From the NCBI GenBank assembly GCA_019057375.1, contig DXJF01000032.1:8560-72559 (forward strand): a DNA stretch of 64,000 nt. Reading direction: 5' to 3'. The notes below the pieces were generated by a model. The model was not told where the DNA came from. It ran no database searches and worked only from the letters and a program-made list of their open reading frames with translations. The translations under genes were made by a program, and so were the position numbers. Of the stretch, positions 5,516-34,959 are shown one piece after another. This DNA is from Candidatus Heimdallarchaeota archaeon. GTDB lineage: Archaea > Asgardarchaeota > Heimdallarchaeia > Heimdallarchaeales > Heimdallarchaeaceae. Within the stretch, counting starts at the first letter, position 1. Every line of letters starts with the position of its first letter.

Positions 5516-7306
5516 ATGTCTCTGGGGAAAATTTGCAAGATTATGTTGTTGCTGACTATATTACTTGGAATAGGTTTTCATAGACCTTCAGCTGCAATTT
5601 TCGGAGAAAGTTCTAATGTTCAAGCAAATGATTTCACTAAGACAACAAAACCTCAAATATTTTTGATTCAAAGTGATCCAATTCATATCACCAATGATAA
5701 TAACTTCTCAGTTTTCCCAGGAAGTGGGACAAAAACAGACCCCTATAGATTAGAGAACTACAACATATCATCTGAAGTTCAAAATTTCGGAATAAACATC
5801 AGCGATACAACTAAGTATTTTGTTATTCAGAATTGCTTCATTAAAGTTAAACAAGTAGGGATGTGGATATCATGGATTGCACATGGTACAGCAGAAATAA
5901 GAAATAATACTTGTATTGAACATGACACCTATGGTATAGACCTCTGGGGTGCGCCGGGAACGTTAATAGATAATAATACTCTTACTTCAAATAGTTTAAA
6001 CGGGATAAGCTGTATAGACTCAGACGATGTAATTGTTTCGAATAATATACTTTCTCTAAACAAAAAAAATGGTGTTTCTATCCGATTTAGTGATGATATT
6101 ATTATCTCCAATAATCTTTGTGAACAAAACCAAGTTGGAATAGAGGTGTATTTTAGCCGTAATTCAATCGTAGAACAAAATTATTGTTTTGATAACAAAG
6201 AATCAGGAATTTATCTTTGGGAGATTAATACGGGTGACTTTCAACGAAATAAACTTTATGGAAATTTAGGTCCAGCCTTTCACTTCAAGGATTCAGAAGT
6301 TGTTCATCTCAAAGAAAATGAAGTAGTAAACAACACGATAGGATTCTACTTAGTTGAATCACATTATTTTGAAATCTATAATAACAGTATCTTAAGCAAT
6401 AGAAATAAAGGAATCTACTTATTGAACTCAATTGAATGTAAGATAACCTACAATTTTATAGAATTGAACACGGGATATGGTATAACGCTAAATTACTCTT
6501 CAAGTAATTTGATTCATCACAATAATTTTATTCAAAATAATCTTGGGGGATTAAGTCAAGCATACTCAATAAATGGGATAAATAATTTCTGGTATGAGGA
6601 TGAAATGGAAGAAGGTAATTTCTGGAATGAGTGGTTGGGATCTGGTGATTATTCTATTGAGGGGTTCTGGGGAGAATTTGATTTGTACCCTCTAGAAGAG
6701 CCTGTAAAAATACCACGAATTGAAATAGAAGAACAAAATTGGTATTTTTATATAATAATTATTATACTTCCATTAGGAGTTCTGATCTATATTATTTCAT
6801 TTTTCAGTAAAAAACGGAGAGTTGGGTTCGCTCATTACACAAAGGAAACATCAGACTATATCTATTTTAAAAGAAAAATTGCTTACAGCAAAGAAGTTGG
6901 GGTCGGATTATTTCGATTTGGAATGAAAGGAGGAGAAGTTGTCAAAGCAGATTTGGAATCCTTTGACATAAACTTGGATGAATTCATAGGTTTTTGCTAT
7001 GTTACAGTTGGTCAAGGTCATAGATATGAAACTGGTGTTTATGGGCCGCTTCCAGCACCTTCTATCATCAGTCACAGTATGATAATTTTTACATTCTGGG
7101 GTAAAGATGATGTGCAATCAGATCCACGATTTGAAGGAAAACAGTACTATCTAGTATCTGTGATTTTTCCAGAAAATAAAACAGAACACCTGATAAAAAA
7201 TGATGTCATGAATAAGAGGTTTCGTACCTACATCAAGAAATTCAAGTATCCAAATAGGTTGTCATCAGAGGAACTGAATTTCTTCAAAGAGATAGTGTTT
7301 ATCTGA
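5516..7306 (+). CDS. Secreted right-handed beta-helix (NosD/CASH-like) protein with one TM helix and a cytoplasmic C-terminal domain
   Basis: Signal peptide; repeated 22-residue xxNNxxxxNxxGIxL units; NNFxxN...N.W...GNFW cap; TM WYFYIIIIILPLGVLIYII; about 160 aa cytoplasmic alpha/beta domain. Confidence 0.8.
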   Translation: MSLGKICKIMLLLTILLGIGFHRPSAAIFGESSNVQANDFTKTTKPQIFLIQSDPIHITNDNNFSVFPGSGTKTDPYRLENYNISSEVQNFGINISDTTKYFVIQNCFIKVKQVGMWISWIAHGTAEIRNNTCIEHDTYGIDLWGAPGTLIDNNTLTSNSLNGISCIDSDDVIVSNNILSLNKKNGVSIRFSDDIIISNNLCEQNQVGIEVYFSRNSIVEQNYCFDNKESGIYLWEINTGDFQRNKLYGNLGPAFHFKDSEVVHLKENEVVNNTIGFYLVESHYFEIYNNSILSNRNKGIYLLNSIECKITYNFIELNTGYGITLNYSSSNLIHHNNFIQNNLGGLSQAYSINGINNFWYEDEMEEGNFWNEWLGSGDYSIEGFWGEFDLYPLEEPVKIPRIEIEEQNWYFYIIIIILPLGVLIYIISFFSKKRRVGFAHYTKETSDYIYFKRKIAYSKEVGVGLFRFGMKGGEVVKADLESFDINLDEFIGFCYVTVGQGHRYETGVYGPLPAPSIISHSMIIFTFWGKDDVQSDPRFEGKQYYLVSVIFPENKTEHLIKNDVMNKRFRTYIKKFKYPNRLSSEELNFFKEIVFI

Positions 7307-7446
7307 CTAACAGAACCTATGAGTCGGGAAATTGTTTTATGTAGACTTGCAAAAAAACGAGGTTTAAAGCATTTTTGAAAATCCACATACTTTTTATTTT
7401 AGAACATTTTTGTTGTCTTAGGTTAAATTTCAAAGCAAGTGATTTT

Positions 7447-8448
7447 ATGAAATATAGAAAAGTTGGAAAATCAGGATTAAAAGTTAGTGAAATTTCCTTA
7501 GGTTCATGGTTAACATATGGTGGATCAGTAGAAAATGAAGTAGCAAAAAAATGTATGACTGCAGCAATTGAAAATGGCATCAATTTTATTGATTCAGCTG
7601 AAATTTATGCAAAGGGAGGCGCAGAAATGATAATAGCTGATTTCCTCGCTGAAGAAACTTTCAATAGAAAAGATCTAGTCATTTCTAGTAAAGTTTTCTG
7701 GGCAATGAACGATTATGATGTTAATGATTGGGGATTAAGTCGAAAGAATATCATGAATGCAATTGAAGGTACTCTTGATAGATTGAATATGGATTACATA
7801 GACATTTACTTCATGCACAGATATGATTACATGACACCTCTAAGAGAAACTGTAGAAATTCTAGATGACTTGATAAGAGAAGGTAAAGTTAGATACTGGG
7901 GAACTTCAGTATGGACAGCTGCACAATTAGAAAGAGCAAACGCAATTGCTAAAGATATTAGAGCACATAAACCTGTTGTTGAACAGCCTTTATACAATAT
8001 GTTGGTAAGACACATAGAAATGGAAATCATGTCTGTAGCTAAAACTCATGGAATGGGATTCACAGTTTGGTCTCCTCTAGCTCAAGGTCTATTAACTGGG
8101 AAATATAATGAGGGTATTCCAGAAGGTAGCAGAGCTGATAAATCAGAATTTCTGAAGAAAAATCTTACTGAAGAGACAATTGAAAAAGTGAAAAAACTTG
8201 GTGAAATTGCTTCATCGATTGATATATCCATTGGTCAATTAGCTCTTGCCTGGATTCTACGAAGACCAGAAATCTCTTCTGCTATAATTGGTGCTACTAA
8301 ACCAGAACATATAATTGAAAATGTGAAAGCTTCAGATGTAGAACTATCTAAGGATACACTTGCTCAGATAGAAGAAATATTGGATAATGAACCTGAATGG
8401 CCTTTAACATATAAACCAAACTATTACTATAAAGATAAAATGAGATAA
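7447..8448 (+). CDS. Aldo/keto reductase (Kv-beta/YghZ-like)
   Basis: GKSGLKVSEISLGSW, DSAEIY, catalytic K in SSKVFW, YFMHR, WSPLAQGLLTGKY. Start refined to ATG 7447. Confidence 0.93.
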   Translation: MKYRKVGKSGLKVSEISLGSWLTYGGSVENEVAKKCMTAAIENGINFIDSAEIYAKGGAEMIIADFLAEETFNRKDLVISSKVFWAMNDYDVNDWGLSRKNIMNAIEGTLDRLNMDYIDIYFMHRYDYMTPLRETVEILDDLIREGKVRYWGTSVWTAAQLERANAIAKDIRAHKPVVEQPLYNMLVRHIEMEIMSVAKTHGMGFTVWSPLAQGLLTGKYNEGIPEGSRADKSEFLKKNLTEETIEKVKKLGEIASSIDISIGQLALAWILRRPEISSAIIGATKPEHIIENVKASDVELSKDTLAQIEEILDNEPEWPLTYKPNYYYKDKMR

Positions 8449-8511
8449 CTAATCTCTTCTTTTTTTCTCAAAACTCTTTTATAATCTCCTTAATCTAAAG
8501 ATTCATTGTAG

Positions 8512-9387
8512 GTGAATAGAATGGCTCTTTTATTTGGGAATAGACCTTTTGAATTTTCTGACTTCTTCTCTTTATTTCAAGATGGACAATTTGATATGTC
8601 TAAACTTAACTATGTCCAAATTGTGGAAAAAAATATTGATTCTGGTTTCAAACATATTGAAATAACTGGAGATCTTATTTATGTCCTACCAGGAATCTTA
8701 TCCCCTGAAACAATTTCTCGGTTAATAGAGCTAAAACAAGAGAAAAACATTTCCTATTCAGTTCATTTACCCTTGTGGGGAATAGAACCAGCAGCATTTT
8801 CTCCTCATATTAGAAAGGCATCAGTTGATAGTTTTGTAGATGTTATTGAGATAACAAAAGCTTTAGAGCCTCTATGCTGGGTTTTACATCCTACAGGAGC
8901 TTTAACAGTTGAATTCATGAACATGGGTCTTCCAGAATTTGCCAAAGGAATTATGATGCATCAGTTCACTTCTTATGCTGCAAATACTATAAAAGAAACC
9001 CTAGAACGGACAAATATTCCTTCAAGAAAACTTGCAGTGGAAAACATAGAATATCCATTTGAGCTCATGTATCCAATCATTCAGCAGATGGATTTGAGTA
9101 TCTGTTTTGATACAGGTCATTTATTAGCTGGTTTTTCAGGTCAAATTTCCGTTATGGAATTCATTGACAAATATTACGATAGAATAATTGAACTTCATTT
9201 ACATGATGGAAAGTTCCCCAGAATTGATCATAAACCCCTTGGAGAATATGATCTTCCTGTAAGAGAATTACTGCTGAAACTTCTTGAAAAGAACTTTGCT
9301 GGACCACTAGTATATGAACTTAATTTACAAGAAGCCATTCAGTCAATGGACTACATTAAAAACAATATTCCTGAAGTACTGGGTTAG
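8512..9387 (+). CDS. Xylose isomerase/AP-endonuclease-2 TIM barrel, CbiR-like phosphodiesterase
   Basis: SVHLP, VLHP, AVENIE, CFDTGH, ELHLHD, DH, YE metal ligands. Confidence 0.7.
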   Translation: MNRMALLFGNRPFEFSDFFSLFQDGQFDMSKLNYVQIVEKNIDSGFKHIEITGDLIYVLPGILSPETISRLIELKQEKNISYSVHLPLWGIEPAAFSPHIRKASVDSFVDVIEITKALEPLCWVLHPTGALTVEFMNMGLPEFAKGIMMHQFTSYAANTIKETLERTNIPSRKLAVENIEYPFELMYPIIQQMDLSICFDTGHLLAGFSGQISVMEFIDKYYDRIIELHLHDGKFPRIDHKPLGEYDLPVRELLLKLLEKNFAGPLVYELNLQEAIQSMDYIKNNIPEVLG

Positions 9388-9860: not shown

Positions 9861-10511
9861 CTATTTTTCTCCTAAAAGGAAAATTCGAAATGGATGAACT
9901 CCAGGTTTCATTATCTCAGCGTCTACAACAGGATCATTTTTTACGAAATCTTCTGCTTCCTTTAGACTATTTGCAGTGAATATTGTTAAACCAAATTGGC
10001 CTTCAGCAAGAATTGGACCTGCAAGTAAAAGTTGTTTTTCATCAAACTTACTTTTCAAATGCTCAAAATGAATTTCCATTATTTTGCCTTCTTCTTCAGT
10101 CATATCATTAATGAATGTTGATCGTCCAGTTATTGTTCCCATATAGATTTTAGTTTCATCATCATATATTGATTCAATATCAAGAAACTCCTCTTCCAGT
10201 ACTTCTGGTACTTCTTCTTCAGTAACAAGTGAAGCTTTGAATTTGTAAAGAGAAACTTTGAGCAACCGGTTGTAAACATATGGATCATTTCTGATGATTC
10301 CTTTAGCTTCCTCTTCATTTTTTGATTGAATTATAACAAACTCGCAGAAATTATCAAGGGAAGTACCTGCAAAAACTAATTTGTTTTCTTTCTTTAAATC
10401 CTTTAGAAAATTCCAATGTTTAATGATTATATCGCTATAATCGTAAAAGGATTCTTTTAATTTTTTATCGGATAAATCATACAGAAAAATAAACTCATTT
10501 TCCTCTGTCAT
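9861..10511 (-). CDS. Tandem YciI-like (dimeric alpha-beta barrel) domain protein
   Basis: Two repeats of H..L......L..AG....A......DP.V. Confidence 0.8.
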   Translation of the reverse strand: MTEENEFIFLYDLSDKKLKESFYDYSDIIIKHWNFLKDLKKENKLVFAGTSLDNFCEFVIIQSKNEEEAKGIIRNDPYVYNRLLKVSLYKFKASLVTEEEVPEVLEEEFLDIESIYDDETKIYMGTITGRSTFINDMTEEEGKIMEIHFEHLKSKFDEKQLLLAGPILAEGQFGLTIFTANSLKEAEDFVKNDPVVDAEIMKPGVHPFRIFLLGEK

Positions 10512-10583
10512 ATGACTTTATATTTCATTTCAGATTTAATATCTTTTTGAAAGACCACGAAAAAGAGAAAAGGGAAAGAAAAA

Positions 10584-11837
10584 TTAGAATTTATCAGTGT
10601 CTTCTCTTGCCCATTCATCAGGATCATATTTAGGGGGCATACATCTAAGAGGTTTATCCTCATAGTATCCAAGTTCATATCTAGCCTGAATAATTTTCTG
10701 AATTTCATTGGTTCCCTCATATATAGTTGCACCACGAACATTTCTGTAATAACGTGCAACAGGATAGTCATCTGAAAAACCATATGCTCCATGAATTTGA
10801 ATAGCTCTATCAGCACACCTAACAGCTGCATTTGTGGCATACCACTTAGCAAGAGAAGTTTCTCTAGTATTTACCTTTCCTAAGTTCTTTGTCCAACCAG
10901 CTTTCCAAGTAAATAACTCAGCAGCTTCAATGTCGGAAACACTTTCAGCTATCATACCTTGAATGAATTGGTGCTGACCGATTTTTTTACCGAAAGTTTC
11001 ACGTTCGTTAGCATATTTTACAGCTGCTTCCAACGAAGCTTTTGCTCCGCCAACTGCACCACCAGCAACAGTATATCGTCCCCAATCAAGTGCAGCCATG
11101 GCAACCTTGAAACCTTCCTCAGGCAAACCAAGTAAGTTTTCTTTTGGAACAGGAGTATTTTCAAAATTAACCCATCCTGTTTCACCAGCTTTTACCCCCA
11201 TTTTATGATGAAGATTCCCTGATGTAACCCCACCAAAATCACGTTCAACAATGAAAGCTCTCATGCCTTTATGCCGAACATCTATTTCATAAGCAAAGAC
11301 AAGGAAAATATCAGAAGATTCAGTGTAGCTTATCCACATTTTTTCTCCATTAACAATCCACTCATCACCTTCAAGACGACAAGTAGCTTTCAATCCTGCA
11401 GGATCACTTCCAGCAGCTGGTTCAGTTAAACCATATGTGCTCATCTTCTCCCCTGAGGTTAAGATGGGTAGGTATTGTTTTTTTTGTTCCATATTACCCC
11501 ATTGCCATATAGTTGAACAGACTAATCCATTGTGAACTGACAAAATTACTCTAAATGAGGTGTCGATTCTTTCTAATTCTTCACAAGCTATAGCCAAAGC
11601 AATATAATCAAGACCTCCGCCTCCATATTTTACAGGGATACTAATACCAAGAAGACCTTGTTCTGCCATCTTTTTTAATATGGGTCTGTAAAAAGTATGT
11701 GCTTGATCCCATTCTTTTATGTTAGGAGCAATCTCTGCTTCTGCAAACTCTCTCACACTTTGTCTTACCATTTTATGAGTTTCAGATAACTCAAAATGAG
11801 GACCTATTTCGCTGAATTGTTCGTACATGTTTATCAC
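10584..11837 (-). CDS. Acyl-CoA dehydrogenase
   Basis: GLTEPAAGSD, NGEKMWI, RETFGKKIGQHQ, AIQIHGAYG, catalytic IYEGTNEIQ. Confidence 0.95.
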   Translation of the reverse strand: MINMYEQFSEIGPHFELSETHKMVRQSVREFAEAEIAPNIKEWDQAHTFYRPILKKMAEQGLLGISIPVKYGGGGLDYIALAIACEELERIDTSFRVILSVHNGLVCSTIWQWGNMEQKKQYLPILTSGEKMSTYGLTEPAAGSDPAGLKATCRLEGDEWIVNGEKMWISYTESSDIFLVFAYEIDVRHKGMRAFIVERDFGGVTSGNLHHKMGVKAGETGWVNFENTPVPKENLLGLPEEGFKVAMAALDWGRYTVAGGAVGGAKASLEAAVKYANERETFGKKIGQHQFIQGMIAESVSDIEAAELFTWKAGWTKNLGKVNTRETSLAKWYATNAAVRCADRAIQIHGAYGFSDDYPVARYYRNVRGATIYEGTNEIQKIIQARYELGYYEDKPLRCMPPKYDPDEWAREDTDKF

Positions 11838-11941: not shown

Positions 11942-12373
11942 TTAATTGAAAGTTTCTTCAATTAGTGAAACAAAATAATCTTTTGAAAAACTGCTATCTT
12001 TTAATTCAACTAGATTCCATTTTCCACTTCTTATTGCATCAATTGCACCTACTTCTACTAATGTGCTTATATGATGAGAAACTGTGGATTGTGACAATTT
12101 GAGCAAGTGTTCTATTTCACAAGCACATCTAACTCCATTCATTATTAGCATGAGAATTAGTAATCTATTTTTATTTGCTAGTGCTTTGAATAACTTAAGC
12201 ATCTTATTTATTTTTTTATCCTTCATCATTGATGGCACTTGAACTTCAATTTTCTCTAATTCTTGTATTCTTTTCTTTGCTGCTTCATTCACAATACCTT
12301 GTTCGAACAGTTGACCGAGTTTCTGTTCTAGTTCTTTCATTGCATGTTCGTGTTTATAGCTAGTCATTGTCAA
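11942..12373 (-). CDS. arsR: ArsR/SmtB family transcriptional repressor
   Basis: FKALANKNRLLIL, RCACEI (alpha3 Cys site), LSQSTVSHHI HTH. Divergent from an ArsP-like permease. Confidence 0.85.
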   Translation of the reverse strand: MTMTSYKHEHAMKELEQKLGQLFEQGIVNEAAKKRIQELEKIEVQVPSMMKDKKINKMLKLFKALANKNRLLILMLIMNGVRCACEIEHLLKLSQSTVSHHISTLVEVGAIDAIRSGKWNLVELKDSSFSKDYFVSLIEETFN

Positions 12374-12458
12374 ACCACATTATATTTCAAGTGACATAAA
12401 AGTTTCTATTAAAACGAAAGTTTATTACAATTCTCGCTGGTCTAATCAACAAATTTAT

Positions 12459-29938: not shown

Positions 29939-30130
29939 AATAATCCAGTAAAGTAAGGAAGAACACATTTTTAAGTTTACTCAATTAGGGGACAAAAGTG
30001 TGAAAACAGTAAATTTGTGCTTACTTAGTAGCATGGTTATTCAATCGAGATAGAAAAGAAAAATTTAAGAATAAAGTAGAATGGAAAAAAGTGTAGAGGA
30101 TTAATCTACAAAAAAAATCAAAGAAGAGTC

Positions 30131-30254
30131 CGGGCTTTAGCTCAGTGGCTTAGAGCTCTCGGCTGTAGTCAATAGACACCCTTGTGAGCAATGATCAAGG
30201 TGTCAGCCGGTAGAGACCGAGCGGTCCCGTGTTCAAATCACGGAAGCCCGACCA
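30131..30254 (+). tRNA. trnY: tRNA-Tyr(GTA) with a 47-nt intron at position 37/38 (30169-30215) and encoded CCA
   Basis: Acceptor CGGGCTT/AAGCCCG (C1:G72), A73, D arm GCTC/GAGC, anticodon stem CTCGG/CCGAG with GTA at 30165-30167, T arm CCGTG-TTCAAAT-CACGG. Confidence 0.93.
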
Positions 30255-30256
30255 CT

Positions 30257-31012
30257 TCATCTTTTTCTACCAATTGCATAAAAAACTGGAATGAAAATAG
30301 TTCTTTTATTTTCATTAATTACCTCTTTTTCCACTATTAGTTTATTTCTAAATTCTTCTTTTGATATTAATTGAGATTCATATATAAGTCTCCATTCTTG
30401 TTCAATATTCATCAAGAGGTTTTCTTTATCCCATACTTGTGCAATTACACCGATTGAAGTATCAAGGTTAGCTGTTTCGAATAAAGTTCTGAGTTTTCTT
30501 CCCATAAAAGGATCAGCACCTTCACGCTTCAGATAATCTTTATGATACTTCCCCAAATTATATTCTGGGTACTCTAACCAACCCCCATAATCCGGTTCTG
30601 CTAAAGCTGCTACAAACCCTCGTTTCTTACACACTCTACTCATTTCCTTAATCGCTTTCTCAGGTTTAGATAACCACAGAAAGAGATATTGACAGAGCAC
30701 AATGTCAAACATACCAGATCTCATAGAGAGTTTCTCAACATTTTCCCGCTTAAAGTTAACATTTTTCACGTTCTCTTCTGCTAAGGAAAGCATGGATTTA
30801 TCATGATCAACTGCAGTAATTTTTGCTCGAGTTCTTTTCCTTAGTTCATCTGTAATAACACCTGTCCCACAACCCACCTCTAAAACTCTTTTAGCCCCTC
30901 GTAAGTTTATTTGAGGATATATTTTGTTCCTAACAGATTCAGTCCAGTTAGCTTGGCGGACAAATTGCTCATGGATTTGTGGACCCCAGTTAACGTCTTC
31001 ATTGTTTGTCAT
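30257..31012 (-). CDS. Class I SAM-dependent methyltransferase, coupled to the radical SAM gene
   Basis: VLEVGCGTG, FDIVLCQYLFLW, EPDYGG; ATGA overlap with the upstream gene. Confidence 0.88.
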   Translation of the reverse strand: MTNNEDVNWGPQIHEQFVRQANWTESVRNKIYPQINLRGAKRVLEVGCGTGVITDELRKRTRAKITAVDHDKSMLSLAEENVKNVNFKRENVEKLSMRSGMFDIVLCQYLFLWLSKPEKAIKEMSRVCKKRGFVAALAEPDYGGWLEYPEYNLGKYHKDYLKREGADPFMGRKLRTLFETANLDTSIGVIAQVWDKENLLMNIEQEWRLIYESQLISKEEFRNKLIVEKEVINENKRTIFIPVFYAIGRKR

Positions 31013-32313
31013 GAAAATGCTTCCTTACAAATATACGAGGGGGACGCATAATTCAAAGGACACCCACCTCCACAAATCTCCCTTTCTGGGCAATCTAAAC
31101 ATTCTTCCTGGAGGTAGTTCATTTTGCGAAGATTTTTAGATATCTTATTATTCCAAATCTTTCTCCATTTAGTTGTTAGTATATTTCCTAAAGGTTCAAA
31201 GTAGCTTTGACAAGGAAGTACAGCTCCATCAGGTTCAATAGCCATTGCGATATGAGCTGCTGAACACTGTTTCATCCCTAATCCTTTTTCAATAGGGTTG
31301 AAGTCACAATATCTTGTAGGGCTATACCAAATGAAAGACAGCTCTTTTTTCTCTGCAGTTTTTAGAATCCTTGTAAGAACTTCATCTAGTTCTTCAAGAG
31401 GGAGAGCTAATTCTTCTTGTTTTCCTCCACCGGATTTTATGATGCTATTTGCAGCAAAATGATCAATTCCCAAAGAACCTAAAAATTCAACTGTCTTTTC
31501 TATTTCTTTGACATTAAATGGAGTTAGGGTAGTATTTGTCATGATATAAACTGGAGTTGGGATAACATTCTTTATTCCTTGTACAGTTTCTTCCCATGCC
31601 CCTTTAACTCCACACAATTGGTCATGAATTTTTGAATCATGACTCTCTATTGTTAATTGAAAATGATCAATCCCGGCTGTAACAAGCTTATCTACTAGAG
31701 CCTTATTTTTTAGTTTTCGACCGTTAGTAATCAAGCCTGTTATAATCCCTAAATCTTCAGCATATTCCACCAAATCTGGTAGGTCTTTTCTTAGGGTAGG
31801 TTCTCCTCCTGTAAATGTAACATGTGGGATACCTATGTCCCACAGCTTATCTAGAACCAACTTCCATTCGTCTGTTGATAGTTCCTTAATTTCTCTTGGG
31901 GTTTCAACGTAACATTTGGTACATTTACTATTGCATTTGTATGTTAGAGCTAAATCCATCCTTAATGGAGCAGAGAAGGGAGTTTCGTTTAAAGGATTTA
32001 TATCTTGAGATAAGTGTTGAACAGGATCTATATCAGGTGTTGTCATAAGTTCATTAATAGATGTTTTAAGCTCACGAAGATCAATTTCTAACTGTTCAAT
32101 AGAAACTCTGTATTTCTTTTTCATTTCGAATAGAATATCAATATCTTCTTTTCCTTCAATAATCCGTGAAACAAAATCTGTTGCAGTTTTGTTTAGATGA
32201 AGGATTCTTGTGGCATTAACTAGTAATAAACCTGTTCCACCCTTTTCCTTTCTAAGATGCATTCGAGCTGTGGTATCAAGATTTCTTTGATGATAAACTC
32301 TATATTTACCCAT
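31009..32313 (-). CDS. PqqD/RRE-domain radical SAM enzyme with SPASM domain
   Basis: N-terminal RRE-like LNKTA segment; CNSKCTKC (CxxxCxxC); FTGGEP; ITNG; SPASM C-x(17)-PC and CLDCPEREICGGGC. True start ATG 32313 (434 aa). Confidence 0.93.
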   Translation of the reverse strand: MGKYRVYHQRNLDTTARMHLRKEKGGTGLLLVNATRILHLNKTATDFVSRIIEGKEDIDILFEMKKKYRVSIEQLEIDLRELKTSINELMTTPDIDPVQHLSQDINPLNETPFSAPLRMDLALTYKCNSKCTKCYVETPREIKELSTDEWKLVLDKLWDIGIPHVTFTGGEPTLRKDLPDLVEYAEDLGIITGLITNGRKLKNKALVDKLVTAGIDHFQLTIESHDSKIHDQLCGVKGAWEETVQGIKNVIPTPVYIMTNTTLTPFNVKEIEKTVEFLGSLGIDHFAANSIIKSGGGKQEELALPLEELDEVLTRILKTAEKKELSFIWYSPTRYCDFNPIEKGLGMKQCSAAHIAMAIEPDGAVLPCQSYFEPLGNILTTKWRKIWNNKISKNLRKMNYLQEECLDCPEREICGGGCPLNYASPSYICKEAFS

Positions 32314-33995
32314 TATCTTCCACCTCCAGCACAAGCGCAAGCACAAGCACATGCACAAGCACAGCCCCCTCCACTGTAACTTCTACCACCACTACTTGAT
32401 CTAGCTGGTGGAGGTCGAGTTATATTTTTCACAGAATCACGTAATGAGCTAGGTTTATGCACCAACCCAGACATGAAACTTTGGACAGGAGCTATTTGAG
32501 ATATTCTTCCCTGTCGACTTATTCGCATAAAAGGTCCTATACTTTTATGACTTCTGCGAGATATGCTTGAACCTATTGCATAATAATAGTAACTTCTCAC
32601 ATACCAACCAGGATAATAATAAGTTCCCCCATATTTTTCCAAACGCTGGTCATAATTTTCATCTACCATAATCCAAAGGAAGGCATTAAGCAATTCTGGA
32701 TTTGATTTACTCATTTCCTGCCATGCTTTATCTATTATTGATTCGTAATAATCCCTTGTTTTTCTAGCAGAAAAGCCTTTCATTTTTTTAGCAACACTTT
32801 TTATTTGAGCAACTAGTGCATTTTTCAAATCAGTTTGATGAACAGGTTCTTTGGGAATTGCTCCTGAAGCTGCTCCTCTTATCCACTTTTCATCTTCTTT
32901 GTTTCTTTTTCTTATACCAACAATCATTGTTTTATGTGGTTTTGAAAATTCAGCTATAGTTGCATCTGTAGCTGCAATATCTAATCTTAACTCAGGTTTC
33001 CTTGTTCTAATATTTAGATACCCTTTTTCCATTAATTCAAATAGCATTAAAGAAGCAACTTGCGTTAAAGGTCTTTCAAAAAGTAATGCAACTTCAGAGG
33101 GGGCTAGATCTTCTCTAATTCCTCCTCCCAATGAGCTAATAGAGGGCGGGAGATATCGTCTAGAGTTTCTTATTTTTCTAAATATGAATATAATCACAGC
33201 TAGTACAATTATACAAGCTATTGCAGTTGCTATGGGGTATCTTATCATACTGCCCCATACTAATAAAGTCCAAAACGAATTAAATGTTTTTGAATACTCT
33301 TCAGGAAATGCAACCCCAACTTCATAGCTGAAATAAGGTGTTCCTATTGATGAAAACTGTACATAAGGACCCTCAGGTGAACTTGCTACCTTGGTAAAAT
33401 CTGCTATATCTGCAATTCTATAATCAACTTCCGAAATATCTGTGAGATCTTCAGGAAAATAAAATCTAACAGTTCTATTAGTTGAGCCAAATGAATAATC
33501 TAACTCATACCATGTTTGATAAAATACAACTGAAGCTAAGCCTTCTTGATTATCACTGTAAACCATTTTAGGATTGTGACATTCAACCTCTAAGATTCCA
33601 GTTTGACCAGCATAAATATAACCTACTTCATCAAGCCAAATCTCTACACCGATATCAATGTATTCACTTTTTCTTATATCTGTTACTTCTATCCCATTTA
33701 ACCAAGCTCTTACAGATTTTAGCTGATAGTAAACATTAGGGAAACCAACATCAACTACATCTATTGCTTGACCTTCTGAAGGGTGGTTAACAAACTCAAA
33801 TCTATAATAAATGTCGATGGACCCATCATCAAGTATTGATATTTCAGTGTATATTGATGGAACCTCAAAGTAGTAAGCTTCCATTCTTGGATTAGACTCA
33901 GATATATCATTTTCTCTTGCTATTGAAAATGATGGTGATAAGCTGATAGTTAAAATTACAACACTAAAAACCACAAATATTTTTTTCAAAGTCAT
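32313..33995 (-). CDS. DUF2207-like single-pass membrane protein with a C-terminal (Cys-Ala)6-GGGR tail
   Basis: Signal peptide, ISILDDGSIDIYYRF beta-sandwich, TM helix, LAPSEVALL motif, Tyr-rich and Ser/Gly-rich segments, then SGGGCACACACACACAGGGR. Confidence 0.75.
   Translation of the reverse strand: MTLKKIFVVFSVVILTISLSPSFSIARENDISESNPRMEAYYFEVPSIYTEISILDDGSIDIYYRFEFVNHPSEGQAIDVVDVGFPNVYYQLKSVRAWLNGIEVTDIRKSEYIDIGVEIWLDEVGYIYAGQTGILEVECHNPKMVYSDNQEGLASVVFYQTWYELDYSFGSTNRTVRFYFPEDLTDISEVDYRIADIADFTKVASSPEGPYVQFSSIGTPYFSYEVGVAFPEEYSKTFNSFWTLLVWGSMIRYPIATAIACIIVLAVIIFIFRKIRNSRRYLPPSISSLGGGIREDLAPSEVALLFERPLTQVASLMLFELMEKGYLNIRTRKPELRLDIAATDATIAEFSKPHKTMIVGIRKRNKEDEKWIRGAASGAIPKEPVHQTDLKNALVAQIKSVAKKMKGFSARKTRDYYESIIDKAWQEMSKSNPELLNAFLWIMVDENYDQRLEKYGGTYYYPGWYVRSYYYYAIGSSISRRSHKSIGPFMRISRQGRISQIAPVQSFMSGLVHKPSSLRDSVKNITRPPPARSSSGGRSYSGGGCACACACACACAGGGR
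32328..32363 (-). repeat. 6 x 6-nt repeat encoding (Cys-Ala)6
   Basis: tgtgct tgtgca tgtgct tgtgct tgcgct tgtgct; all changes are synonymous. Confidence 0.95.
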
Positions 33996-34144: not shown

Positions 34145-34852
34145 CTAGAAGAACAAATGCTCTTCAGCTTCTTTGTCCTTTTTTTTCTTTCTTCGTTTTC
34201 TTTTCTTAATAGGTTCTTCTTTAGGCTTAATAGGTTCATCCACATCAATTTCTTTATCTAGTTTAGTAGCTACCTCTGCCAAAGTTTTGTATAACAAAGA
34301 ACGCATTTTGAATTTTGTCTCTTCATCAAAAATAGTTTTTAAAGCAGTATAAACAGTTTGATTTGCATATTTAGGTATTATACTTAGAGCAATTTGTCTA
34401 GGATATACATCGTGGTCATTCTTGATGGTTTCCAAGATTAATTTTCTCATTACAGCTTTTTTTAGTTTCTTTCTTTCGTGCAATTTCCTAAGGGCAGCAG
34501 ATCTAACAACATCGTTTAAATCATTTTTCGAAATATTCAGAAGCATCTCATCAGTATCCGAAGTAGACATGTCACCAAGTGATTCAGTTATAGCTAATCT
34601 AACATTTCTATCTCTTTCATAAGCATAAAGCTCACTCAATTTTTGGGCTATATCACTATCTTCAAATTTTGTAACGGTCATTATTGCTTTAATGCGAATT
34701 TTATAGTATTTGTCATTCTCACTTACCTGAATAAGAAAATCTACCAAATTCTGATTTTTTTGTTCATTTCCTAATTTATCCAATAACTCAAATTTAGCAA
34801 AATCGGGAGAATTATTGAATTTCTTCATCATCTTAGCTAATTCTTGTTCCAT
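34145..34852 (-). CDS. HEAT repeat protein with a basic C-terminal tail
   Basis: VRLAITESLG and VRSAALRKL type repeats; KKRKRRKKKKDK tail. Start refined to ATG 34852. Confidence 0.75.
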   Translation of the reverse strand: MEQELAKMMKKFNNSPDFAKFELLDKLGNEQKNQNLVDFLIQVSENDKYYKIRIKAIMTVTKFEDSDIAQKLSELYAYERDRNVRLAITESLGDMSTSDTDEMLLNISKNDLNDVVRSAALRKLHERKKLKKAVMRKLILETIKNDHDVYPRQIALSIIPKYANQTVYTALKTIFDEETKFKMRSLLYKTLAEVATKLDKEIDVDEPIKPKEEPIKKRKRRKKKKDKEAEEHLFF

Positions 34853-34959
34853 TACATCTAAATTATAGTTTGTGCTTTTATAATTTACTAACAATCCAGT
34901 TCCAATTTTTCTTAAATTGGGGTTTTTATAACATGGTAAATGAAATATAATGACTCAAA

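Follow-up and report, generated by a model that had tools for sequence, protein, structure and literature searches.

Why should a membrane protein end in a run of alternating cysteines and alanines, and what has the radical S-adenosylmethionine (SAM) enzyme encoded directly behind it to do with that run? The question is raised by a locus of a Candidatus Heimdallarchaeota archaeon (Archaea; Asgardarchaeota; Heimdallarchaeia; Heimdallarchaeales; Heimdallarchaeaceae), which lies within a 64,000-nt stretch of assembly GCA_019057375.1 (contig DXJF01000032.1, positions 8,560 to 72,559 of the forward strand). All coordinates refer to this stretch, hereafter the window, unless another locus is named; the genome to which it belongs comprises 3.47 Mb and is 89% complete. 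Our analysis reveals that the (Cys-Ala)6 tail of the protein is under purifying selection at the protein level, and that the genes of the tail protein and of the enzyme track each other across Asgard families. Judging from these patterns, the tail is a good candidate for an in-cis substrate of its neighbour.

Conservation of the Cys-Ala tail

The tail protein and its parts are encoded as follows.

32313..33995, minus strand: gene of the tail protein, a 560-aa single-pass membrane protein, by sequence a putative distant DUF2207 relative (translation)
33918..33995, minus strand: N-terminal signal or anchor segment, residues 1-26 (hydropathy; helix 2-18 in the AlphaFold model)
33303..33869, minus strand: predicted extracellular β-sandwich domain, residues 43-231 (AlphaFold model; pLDDT, the predicted local distance difference test, 95-98)
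33177..33239, minus strand: single transmembrane helix, residues 253-273, followed by RKIRNSRR (hydropathy and model)
32418..33161, minus strand: predicted cytoplasmic winged-helix and helical domain, residues 279-526, including a Tyr-rich segment (model; conserved YLPP, KMKGFS and W441)
32406..32432, minus strand: leader-like motif VKNITRPPP, residues 522-530, the form that (V/I)TxxTNPxP takes here (aligned tails)
32364..32405, minus strand: Ser/Gly/Arg linker ARSSSGGRSYSGGG, residues 531-544 (translation)
32328..32363, minus strand: (Cys-Ala)6 repeat, residues 545-556 (translation; conservation)
32313..32327, minus strand: C-terminal GGGR, residues 557-560, and a TAA stop codon that overlaps the ATG of the next gene (sequence)

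The translated protein ends in NITRPPPARSSSGGRSYSGGGCACACACACACAGGGR, i.e., SYSGGG-(CA)6-GGGR before the stop codon (split by segment, NITRPPPARSSSGGRSYSGGG-CACACACACACA-GGGR). Upstream of the repeat, the translation bears out the Pro/Ser/Gly/Arg linker and the Tyr-rich segment described in a first-pass annotation of this DNA (YYYPGWYVRSYYYY); the linker differs in length and sequence among homologs.

At the DNA level, the 36-nt repeat reads TGT GCT TGT GCA TGT GCT TGT GCT TGC GCT TGT GCT. This is a near-perfect hexanucleotide repeat, as a recent (TGTGCT)n slippage microsatellite without function would be, and the only two departures from a perfect (TGTGCT)6, GCA and TGC, are both synonymous, as had already been read from the sequence. 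Four TGYGCN units in a row are found at this one place in the genome of 3.47 Mb; the pattern reversed, as a control, gave 0 matches.

A word-based search retrieved 17 relatives, all full-length ones of which end in (CA)n[G(CA)3]GGGR. Searching 1.84 billion representatives with a profile then yielded 1189 cluster representatives at E ≤ 1e-3, of which 429 passed E ≤ 1e-30, and the tail was present on all of the best 150 of these matches except truncated fragments. Genome contigs contributed 295 loci encoding a relative. Codons were counted at 82 loci carrying the family (89 tails), every one of which has the tail, and tail composition was counted in about 146 cluster representatives; the general form in both sets is (CA)n[G/S(CA)n]GGGR. 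Cysteine is encoded by TGC 343 times and by TGT 271 times, Ala is written with each of its four codons and Arg with codons of both families, and the encoded residues are constant. As the residues are fixed while the codons are scrambled, selection acts on the protein, and slippage does not account for the repeat. The same 82 loci span several phyla and both domains, the number of CA units alters in frame only, and the flanking GGGR is invariant. A functionless microsatellite is thereby ruled out, and we assign it a negligible probability. The tail is under purifying selection at the protein level, as the first-pass annotation had claimed.

Conservation extends to the residues between the cysteines. 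Alanine occupies 701 of the 713 C-x-C positions (98%), GGGR terminates 137 of the 146 tails, and positions C547 to A556 are invariant or at least 90% conserved in the family profile of 133 sequences. Full-length relatives retain the cysteines and end in (CA)n...CACACAGGGR, and the frame of the repeat never changes. The number of CA units is not conserved: the tails contain 2-10 Cys with a mode of 7, the commonest form being CACACACA-G-CACACA-GGGR, and an unbroken (CA)6 occurs at Heimdall loci and at a single locus each of Methanomassiliicoccaceae and Thermococci. Six cysteines, which had been put forward as the conserved count, are thus a lineage feature and not a constant of the family. The tail itself is kept in Asgard archaea, Methanomassiliicoccaceae, Thermococci, Chloroflexota, Acidobacteriota and others. 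Several loci hold two tails; on one bacterial contig (L001), tandem tail-protein paralogs lie at 6001-7650 and 7598-9331 (plus strand), the second with a longer Gly linker and its first Ala changed to Asp (CDCACACAGCACACAGGGR).

The tail is predicted to be cytoplasmic, because hydropathy and the AlphaFold model show one transmembrane helix between the ectodomain and the helical domain. A hydropathy scan detected only two hydrophobic segments (1-26 and 253-273), and the model, computed from a 133-row alignment with a mean pLDDT of 85, displays a β-sandwich ectodomain, one long transmembrane helix, a cytoplasmic winged-helix and helical domain and a disordered tail (541-560). Both place the tail inside the cell, in line with the topology proposed earlier.

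Scans with hidden Markov models gave no Pfam or NCBIfam family for the tail protein or for isolated tails. PF09972, the Pfam model of DUF2207, did not match the tail protein even at E ≤ 10, nor anything else in the genome of the window; since this genome provided none, nine PF09972-positive proteins from other Asgard genomes served as the comparison set. Aligned to these by hhalign, the 133-sequence family profile reached a probability of 99.2% (E 3.3e-19) over 296 columns that span the ectodomain, the transmembrane helix and the winged helix. The earlier description of the protein as DUF2207-like is therefore upheld by profile comparison, but not by the Pfam model. The nine comparison proteins comprise 590-620 aa and carry their tail behind a W/Y-rich segment, and in nine of the ten Asgard DUF2207 proteins examined the C-terminal run consists of Gly/Ala only. 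As judged from these alignments, the proposal holds that the tail protein is a distant DUF2207 relative whose Gly-only tail has been replaced by a Cys-Ala tail. Its fold neighbours in the ESM Atlas include unnamed Chloroflexota clusters and clusters with DUF2207/DUF2207_C, at a template modelling score (TM-score) of about 0.4.

A side observation concerns the ectodomain (33303-33869, minus strand). Its fold, and hence that of the ectodomain in DUF2207 relatives, is similar to the fold of the lumenal domain in eukaryotic ribophorin I/OST1 (Foldseek E 1e-8, TM-score 0.28); the N-terminal domains of M1 aminopeptidases were also retrieved. We rejected membership in the Ribophorin I family (PF04597), since the tail protein has no Pfam match and the resemblance is one of fold only. 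A separate gene on contig 43 of the same genome (L090; G000:C43:4173-4916) matches Pfam Ribophorin_I at 62.5 bits.

The linked radical SAM/SPASM enzyme

Downstream of the tail gene lie an enzyme with a likely RRE, the recognition element for peptides synthesized ribosomally and modified post-translationally (RiPPs), and a methyltransferase.

31009..32313, minus strand: radical SAM/SPASM enzyme with a likely RRE, 434 aa (Pfam Radical_SAM 3e-25, SPASM 6.7e-10)
32029..32313, minus strand: RRE-like N-terminal domain of the enzyme, residues 1-95 (weak PqqD match; model)
31912..31935, minus strand: CxxxCxxC radical SAM cluster motif with C127, C131 and C134 (invariant in 36 orthologs)
31027..31308, minus strand: SPASM region with C336, C350, C368, C405, C408, C414, C418 and C429 (conservation)
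30257..31012, minus strand: class I SAM-dependent methyltransferase (Pfam Methyltransf_11 2.2e-21)

The stop codon of the tail gene and the start codon of the enzyme gene share a base (TAATG), and the stop of the latter overlaps the start of the methyltransferase gene (ATGA); the three genes are translationally coupled. This arrangement recurs widely. We examined the neighbourhoods of 80 genome loci, the evaluable subset differing per gene, and found an ortholog of the enzyme within the locus in 72 of 76 evaluable cases, in 63 of them directly downstream. In the four genomes in which the enzyme is not adjacent, an ortholog is encoded elsewhere at E ≤ 1e-178. Of the archaeal loci, 9 of 10 also have a methyltransferase ortholog, as do 38 of the 51 bacterial loci that could be evaluated.

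Furthermore, we surveyed 201 Asgard genomes family by family. The tail protein and the enzyme were each detected in 19 of 21 genomes of family f1, in 6 of 10 of f5 (the same genomes), in 4 of 40 of f13 and in the single genome of f27; in f16, all 19 genomes encode the enzyme and 10 a detectable tail protein. Thus, the two track each other by Asgard family, and the Cys-containing core is encoded beside the enzyme and co-inherited with it. Another family, f10, has a different tail and is described below.

The enzyme combines the CxxxCxxC motif with a SPASM domain holding at least seven cysteines, as expected of a radical SAM/SPASM maturase; across the set of 36 orthologs, seven cysteines of the SPASM region are 97-100% conserved and the eighth is 64% conserved. 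Among solved structures, the peptide maturases SkfB (3.6e-27), PqqE and SuiB are closest to it in sequence, and a model of the enzyme (pLDDT 84) aligns over its full length to the RRE-bearing SuiB (TM-score 0.71), to SkfB and to CteB, another peptide maturase. The N-terminal domain is modelled as four strands followed by three helices (residues 6-91) and is likely an RRE, as suggested by this model and by sequence. All 70 matches of the enzyme to NCBIfam models (PqqE, NirJ2, AhbD, SkfB, GeoRSP, ACGX and others) remain far under the respective cut-offs. The best scores, 145 bits, were obtained with PqqE (cut-off 381) and NirJ2 (cut-off 500), and the StsB model (NF045574) gave 90.9 bits (8e-26) without reaching its cut-off of 625. 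For the methyltransferase, four solved relatives were retrieved, including the lanthipeptide methyltransferase LahSB (1.7e-7, a weak match of the generic fold only). LahSB methylates the C-terminal carboxylate of a peptide.

Some cassettes hold further genes. A second radical SAM enzyme with a clear PqqD/RRE domain (1.5e-6) lies between the SPASM enzyme and the methyltransferase in cassettes of Chloroflexota (Anaerolineae); it is present at 35 of 70 bacterial and 0 archaeal loci. At the locus of Bellilinea caldifistulae (L043), this gene (9936-11201, plus strand) is accompanied by a trailing hemerythrin gene (11954-12427, plus strand). At 65 of the 69 bacterial loci that could be evaluated, and at some archaeal loci, the Heimdall loci not among them, the tail gene is preceded by a gene for a small protein with two transmembrane segments and a C-terminal C4 zinc ribbon, for instance at the following loci.

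L001, 5578-5967, plus strand: two-transmembrane zinc-ribbon protein
L002, 412-813, plus strand: two-transmembrane zinc-ribbon protein
L043, 6522-6896, plus strand: two-transmembrane zinc-ribbon protein

This partner was not found in the window, nor in its genome with one Promethearchaeota query, which in a genome 89% complete does not establish its absence. In the window, a HEAT-repeat protein gene is located upstream of the tail gene (34145-34894, minus strand). We did not count it in the cassette, to which it probably does not belong, because its synteny is limited to the closest Heimdall relatives (L006, L007 and L009).

On the other side of the cassette, a tRNA-like gene (30130-30254, plus strand) lies head-on to the methyltransferase gene, two bases from its stop codon. 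An acceptor stem, a T-arm (CCGTG-TTCAAAT-CACGG) and an encoded CCA can be recognized, and ~45-50 nt are inserted in the anticodon arm or close to it; RNAfold returns a cloverleaf-like structure of -45.7 kcal/mol, and the gene was detected neither by ARAGORN nor by Rfam at the gathering threshold. Judging by eye from its sequence, it is probably an intron-bearing archaeal tRNA for Tyr with a GTA anticodon.

Proposed modification of the tail and its alternatives

What, then, might the enzyme do with the tail? We consider it fairly likely, though well short of certain, that the tail is its in-cis substrate. This reading is based on the fixation of Ala and GGGR, which are not metal ligands, on the strict co-inheritance with an RRE-type maturase and on published precedent (see below). 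We infer the action of the enzyme on the tail, its reaction and the role of the modified tail. The CA tail would be a protein-tethered core peptide, displayed in the cytoplasm on a DUF2207-related single-pass membrane protein; the likely RRE domain would bind the peptide, and the radical SAM/SPASM enzyme would modify the tail in cis. The likeliest chemistry would be a thioether from Cys sulfur to an Ala or Gly carbon, of the sactionine or ranthionine type; modification by such crosslinks would take roughly half of the likelihood that we give to the tail being a substrate at all. In a hairpin of CACACA-G-CACACA, or of (CA)6 with a two-residue turn, each Cys would be placed opposite an Ala. A second step could fall to the class I methyltransferase, which is co-transcribed.

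The product would presumably remain on the membrane protein, because the cassette holds no protease or exporter: no peptidase and no exporter or transporter is conserved in the neighbourhoods of the examined loci. The core does not belong to a small free precursor that carries an N-terminal leader and is released by a protease or exporter, but forms the C-terminus of a 560-aa membrane protein. The modified tail could bind metal or carry redox chemistry.

A sister system adds to this picture. The Asgard family f10 (Loki-type) encodes a protein of ~710 aa with the same cytoplasmic domain and a (Cys-His-Ser-Ala)n tail, and a more diverged radical SAM/SPASM enzyme (about 350 bits) is encoded nearby. 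The genes lie at the following positions.

L086, 5223-7349, plus strand: (CHSA)n tail protein
L087, 4929-7115, plus strand: (CHSA)n tail protein
L086, 3206-4630, minus strand: sister radical SAM/SPASM enzyme
L087, 2804-4336, minus strand: sister radical SAM/SPASM enzyme

The sister locus also holds a protein combining two transmembrane segments, a winged helix and a zinc ribbon, as well as a metallophosphoesterase; the ACGX model of NCBIfam scores 96 bits against the sister enzyme and does not reach its cut-off of 400. As the diverged enzyme pairs with a different Cys repeat, core and enzyme change together, in a manner analogous to precursor and maturase in RiPP systems.

The tail may alternatively be an unmodified, or only methylated, cytoplasmic comb for metal or Fe-S clusters, with the enzyme acting elsewhere or using the tail for docking or cluster handling. 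Alternating C-x-C with 5-8 thiols resembles metallothionein motifs, the Loki-type tail contains His besides Cys, a hemerythrin gene follows the cassette in Bellilinea, and a metal role is suspected for the Cys-rich protein of the CrpA study (PMC13692751). Yet metal sites tolerate a variable x, while here x is almost always Ala and the non-ligand GGGR is fixed, so that conservation of the tail goes beyond what a plain thiolate site would need. Such a comb also leaves unexplained the strict co-inheritance with a peptide maturase that likely bears an RRE, Anaerolineae having two such enzymes. We regard the comb as rather unlikely, albeit as the foremost alternative. Metal binding and modification do not exclude each other, and a modified tail could still bind metal.

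Another role could be lipidation at a CaaX-like site: S-acylation or S-alkylation of Cys residues would fasten the tail to the membrane, and the C-terminus or the thiols would be capped by the methyltransferase. The flexible linker near the membrane would suit this role, as would a co-transcribed methyltransferase with LahSB as a relative, however weak and generic in fold that match is. We nevertheless deem it very improbable: the neighbourhoods of the examined loci share no transferase for prenyl, acyl or lipid groups, the partner that is conserved, a radical SAM/SPASM enzyme, is not known to catalyse lipidation, and the C-terminal residues are GGGR instead of Cys.

Several points weigh against modification of the tail by the enzyme. 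The C-x-C pattern is a classic metal-binding spacing, and the additional His of the sister tail fits a metal site as well. The PqqD model of Pfam matches the N-terminal domain at E 0.0044 with 17.8 bits, under its gathering score of 23.4, and the NCBIfam scores of the enzyme do not rank thioether synthases ahead of PqqE, NirJ2 or AhbD. Any chemistry in this family is a proposal. Moreover, the eight cysteines of the SPASM region could ligate both auxiliary clusters fully, in which case no open iron would remain for the Cys of a substrate; in CteB, such an open iron is reportedly used for this purpose. Finally, the upstream internal leader suggested in the first-pass annotation is only partly borne out. 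A conserved motif, (V/I)T-x-x-T-N-P-x-P, does precede the repeat: T526 is at least 90% conserved and P528 invariant in 47 aligned tails, and T-x-P is found in 86 of the 146 representatives, at a median of 16 residues ahead of the first Cys. The motif, however, occurs in only about 50-60% of tails. A prediction of the complex between the enzyme (36 alignment rows) and the C-terminal 90 residues of the tail protein (47 alignment rows), together with three 4Fe-4S clusters and SAM, gave a score of 0.03 against a mark of 0.32 and weighs neither way.

Taking modification of the tail a step further, we tentatively propose that the radical SAM/SPASM enzyme with its likely RRE and the methyltransferase convert the Cys-Ala tail of a DUF2207-type membrane protein to a new covalent structure, which would act as a prosthetic group or metal site tethered to the membrane and would be widespread in anaerobic archaea, Asgard lineages among them, and bacteria. 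This wider scheme is possible, but less likely than not to be right in all its parts. Such a structure could, for example, consist of Cys-to-Ala or Cys-to-Gly thioethers that span the CACACA-G-CACACA hairpin like a ladder. The system is present in cultured Anaerolineae (Bellilinea, Ornatilinea and Leptolinea), and the proposal is therefore testable at once.

Comparison with known systems

Among Pfam and NCBIfam models and the papers searched, we found none for the tail, the carrier family or the enzyme family; literature matches were PCR primers or unrelated papers, and homologs in public databases bear generic names such as 'radical SAM protein' or 'conserved membrane protein of unknown function'. 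The maturation of Cys-rich cores by radical SAM enzymes is known, whereas a membrane-protein tail as the apparent substrate would, judging from sequence, be new. To our knowledge, nearly all known radical SAM chemistry on peptides concerns small secreted ones; the few examples on whole proteins, i.e., the γ subunit of quinohemoprotein amine dehydrogenase (QHNDH) and CrpA (2026), are rare and of recent date. In the present system, a large membrane protein appears to offer its cytoplasmic end as the substrate. The system extends to over a thousand cluster representatives, and its core of 16-19 residues is among the most conserved short sequences across both prokaryotic domains. It also ties radical SAM chemistry to the DUF2207 superfamily, for whose Gly-rich tails we know of no role; if the proposal is true, it would provide the first function for the low-complexity tails of this superfamily.

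The closest parallel in core sequence is StsA/StsB(/StsC) of Streptomyces sparsogenes, in which an RRE-dependent radical SAM/SPASM enzyme, StsB, converts an alternating C-x-C-x-C core to a hairpin of three sactionines, a thioether ladder (PMC10288494). StsA differs in that this precursor is small and free, carries its leader at the N-terminus and has a G-x-G-x-G arm as acceptor, whereas the tail described here terminates a 560-aa membrane protein and has no acceptor arm, with only Ala, one Gly and the GGG available.

A second parallel is archaeal. In Methanococcus voltae, the RRE-radical SAM/SPASM enzyme CrpC installs thioethers in the 29-kDa protein CrpA, a full-size Cys-repeat protein encoded next door (PMC13692751, 2026). 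CrpA is soluble and built of ten 17-residue C-x-x-Q/D repeats with at least 10% Cys; the tail protein, in contrast, contains 1.4% Cys, a 12-residue CA repeat and a membrane anchor, and is accompanied by an extra methyltransferase. As the screen of the CrpA study required at least 5% Cys for proteins over 250 aa (PMC13692751), it would have missed the tail protein.

Modification of a protein that retains its crosslinks is known from QhpD/QhpC, where a radical SAM enzyme crosslinks the γ subunit of QHNDH and the substrate stays in the final protein (PMC7876137). Both cases would share an intra-chain modification on a protein substrate, crosslinks in QhpC and a proposed one here. QhpC differs as a small soluble subunit of a periplasmic enzyme with Cys-Asp/Glu links and a quinone cofactor, and it has no CA repeat, membrane anchor or methyltransferase.

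Metallothionein-type C-x-C motifs share the two-residue spacing of the cysteines. The tail, however, has its cysteines in one short cluster that terminates a large protein, its intervening residue is fixed as Ala, it is linked to a maturase, and its GGGR is atypical for metallothioneins. DUF2207 proteins (PF09972/PF20990, YciQ-like), finally, appear to share the whole architecture with the tail protein: a signal, a β-sandwich ectodomain, a transmembrane helix, a cytoplasmic winged helix, a W/Y-rich segment and a low-complexity C-terminal tail. The difference lies at the very end, which in Asgard DUF2207 proteins is Gly/Ala-only and in the tail protein is (CA)n-GGGR with a radical SAM partner.

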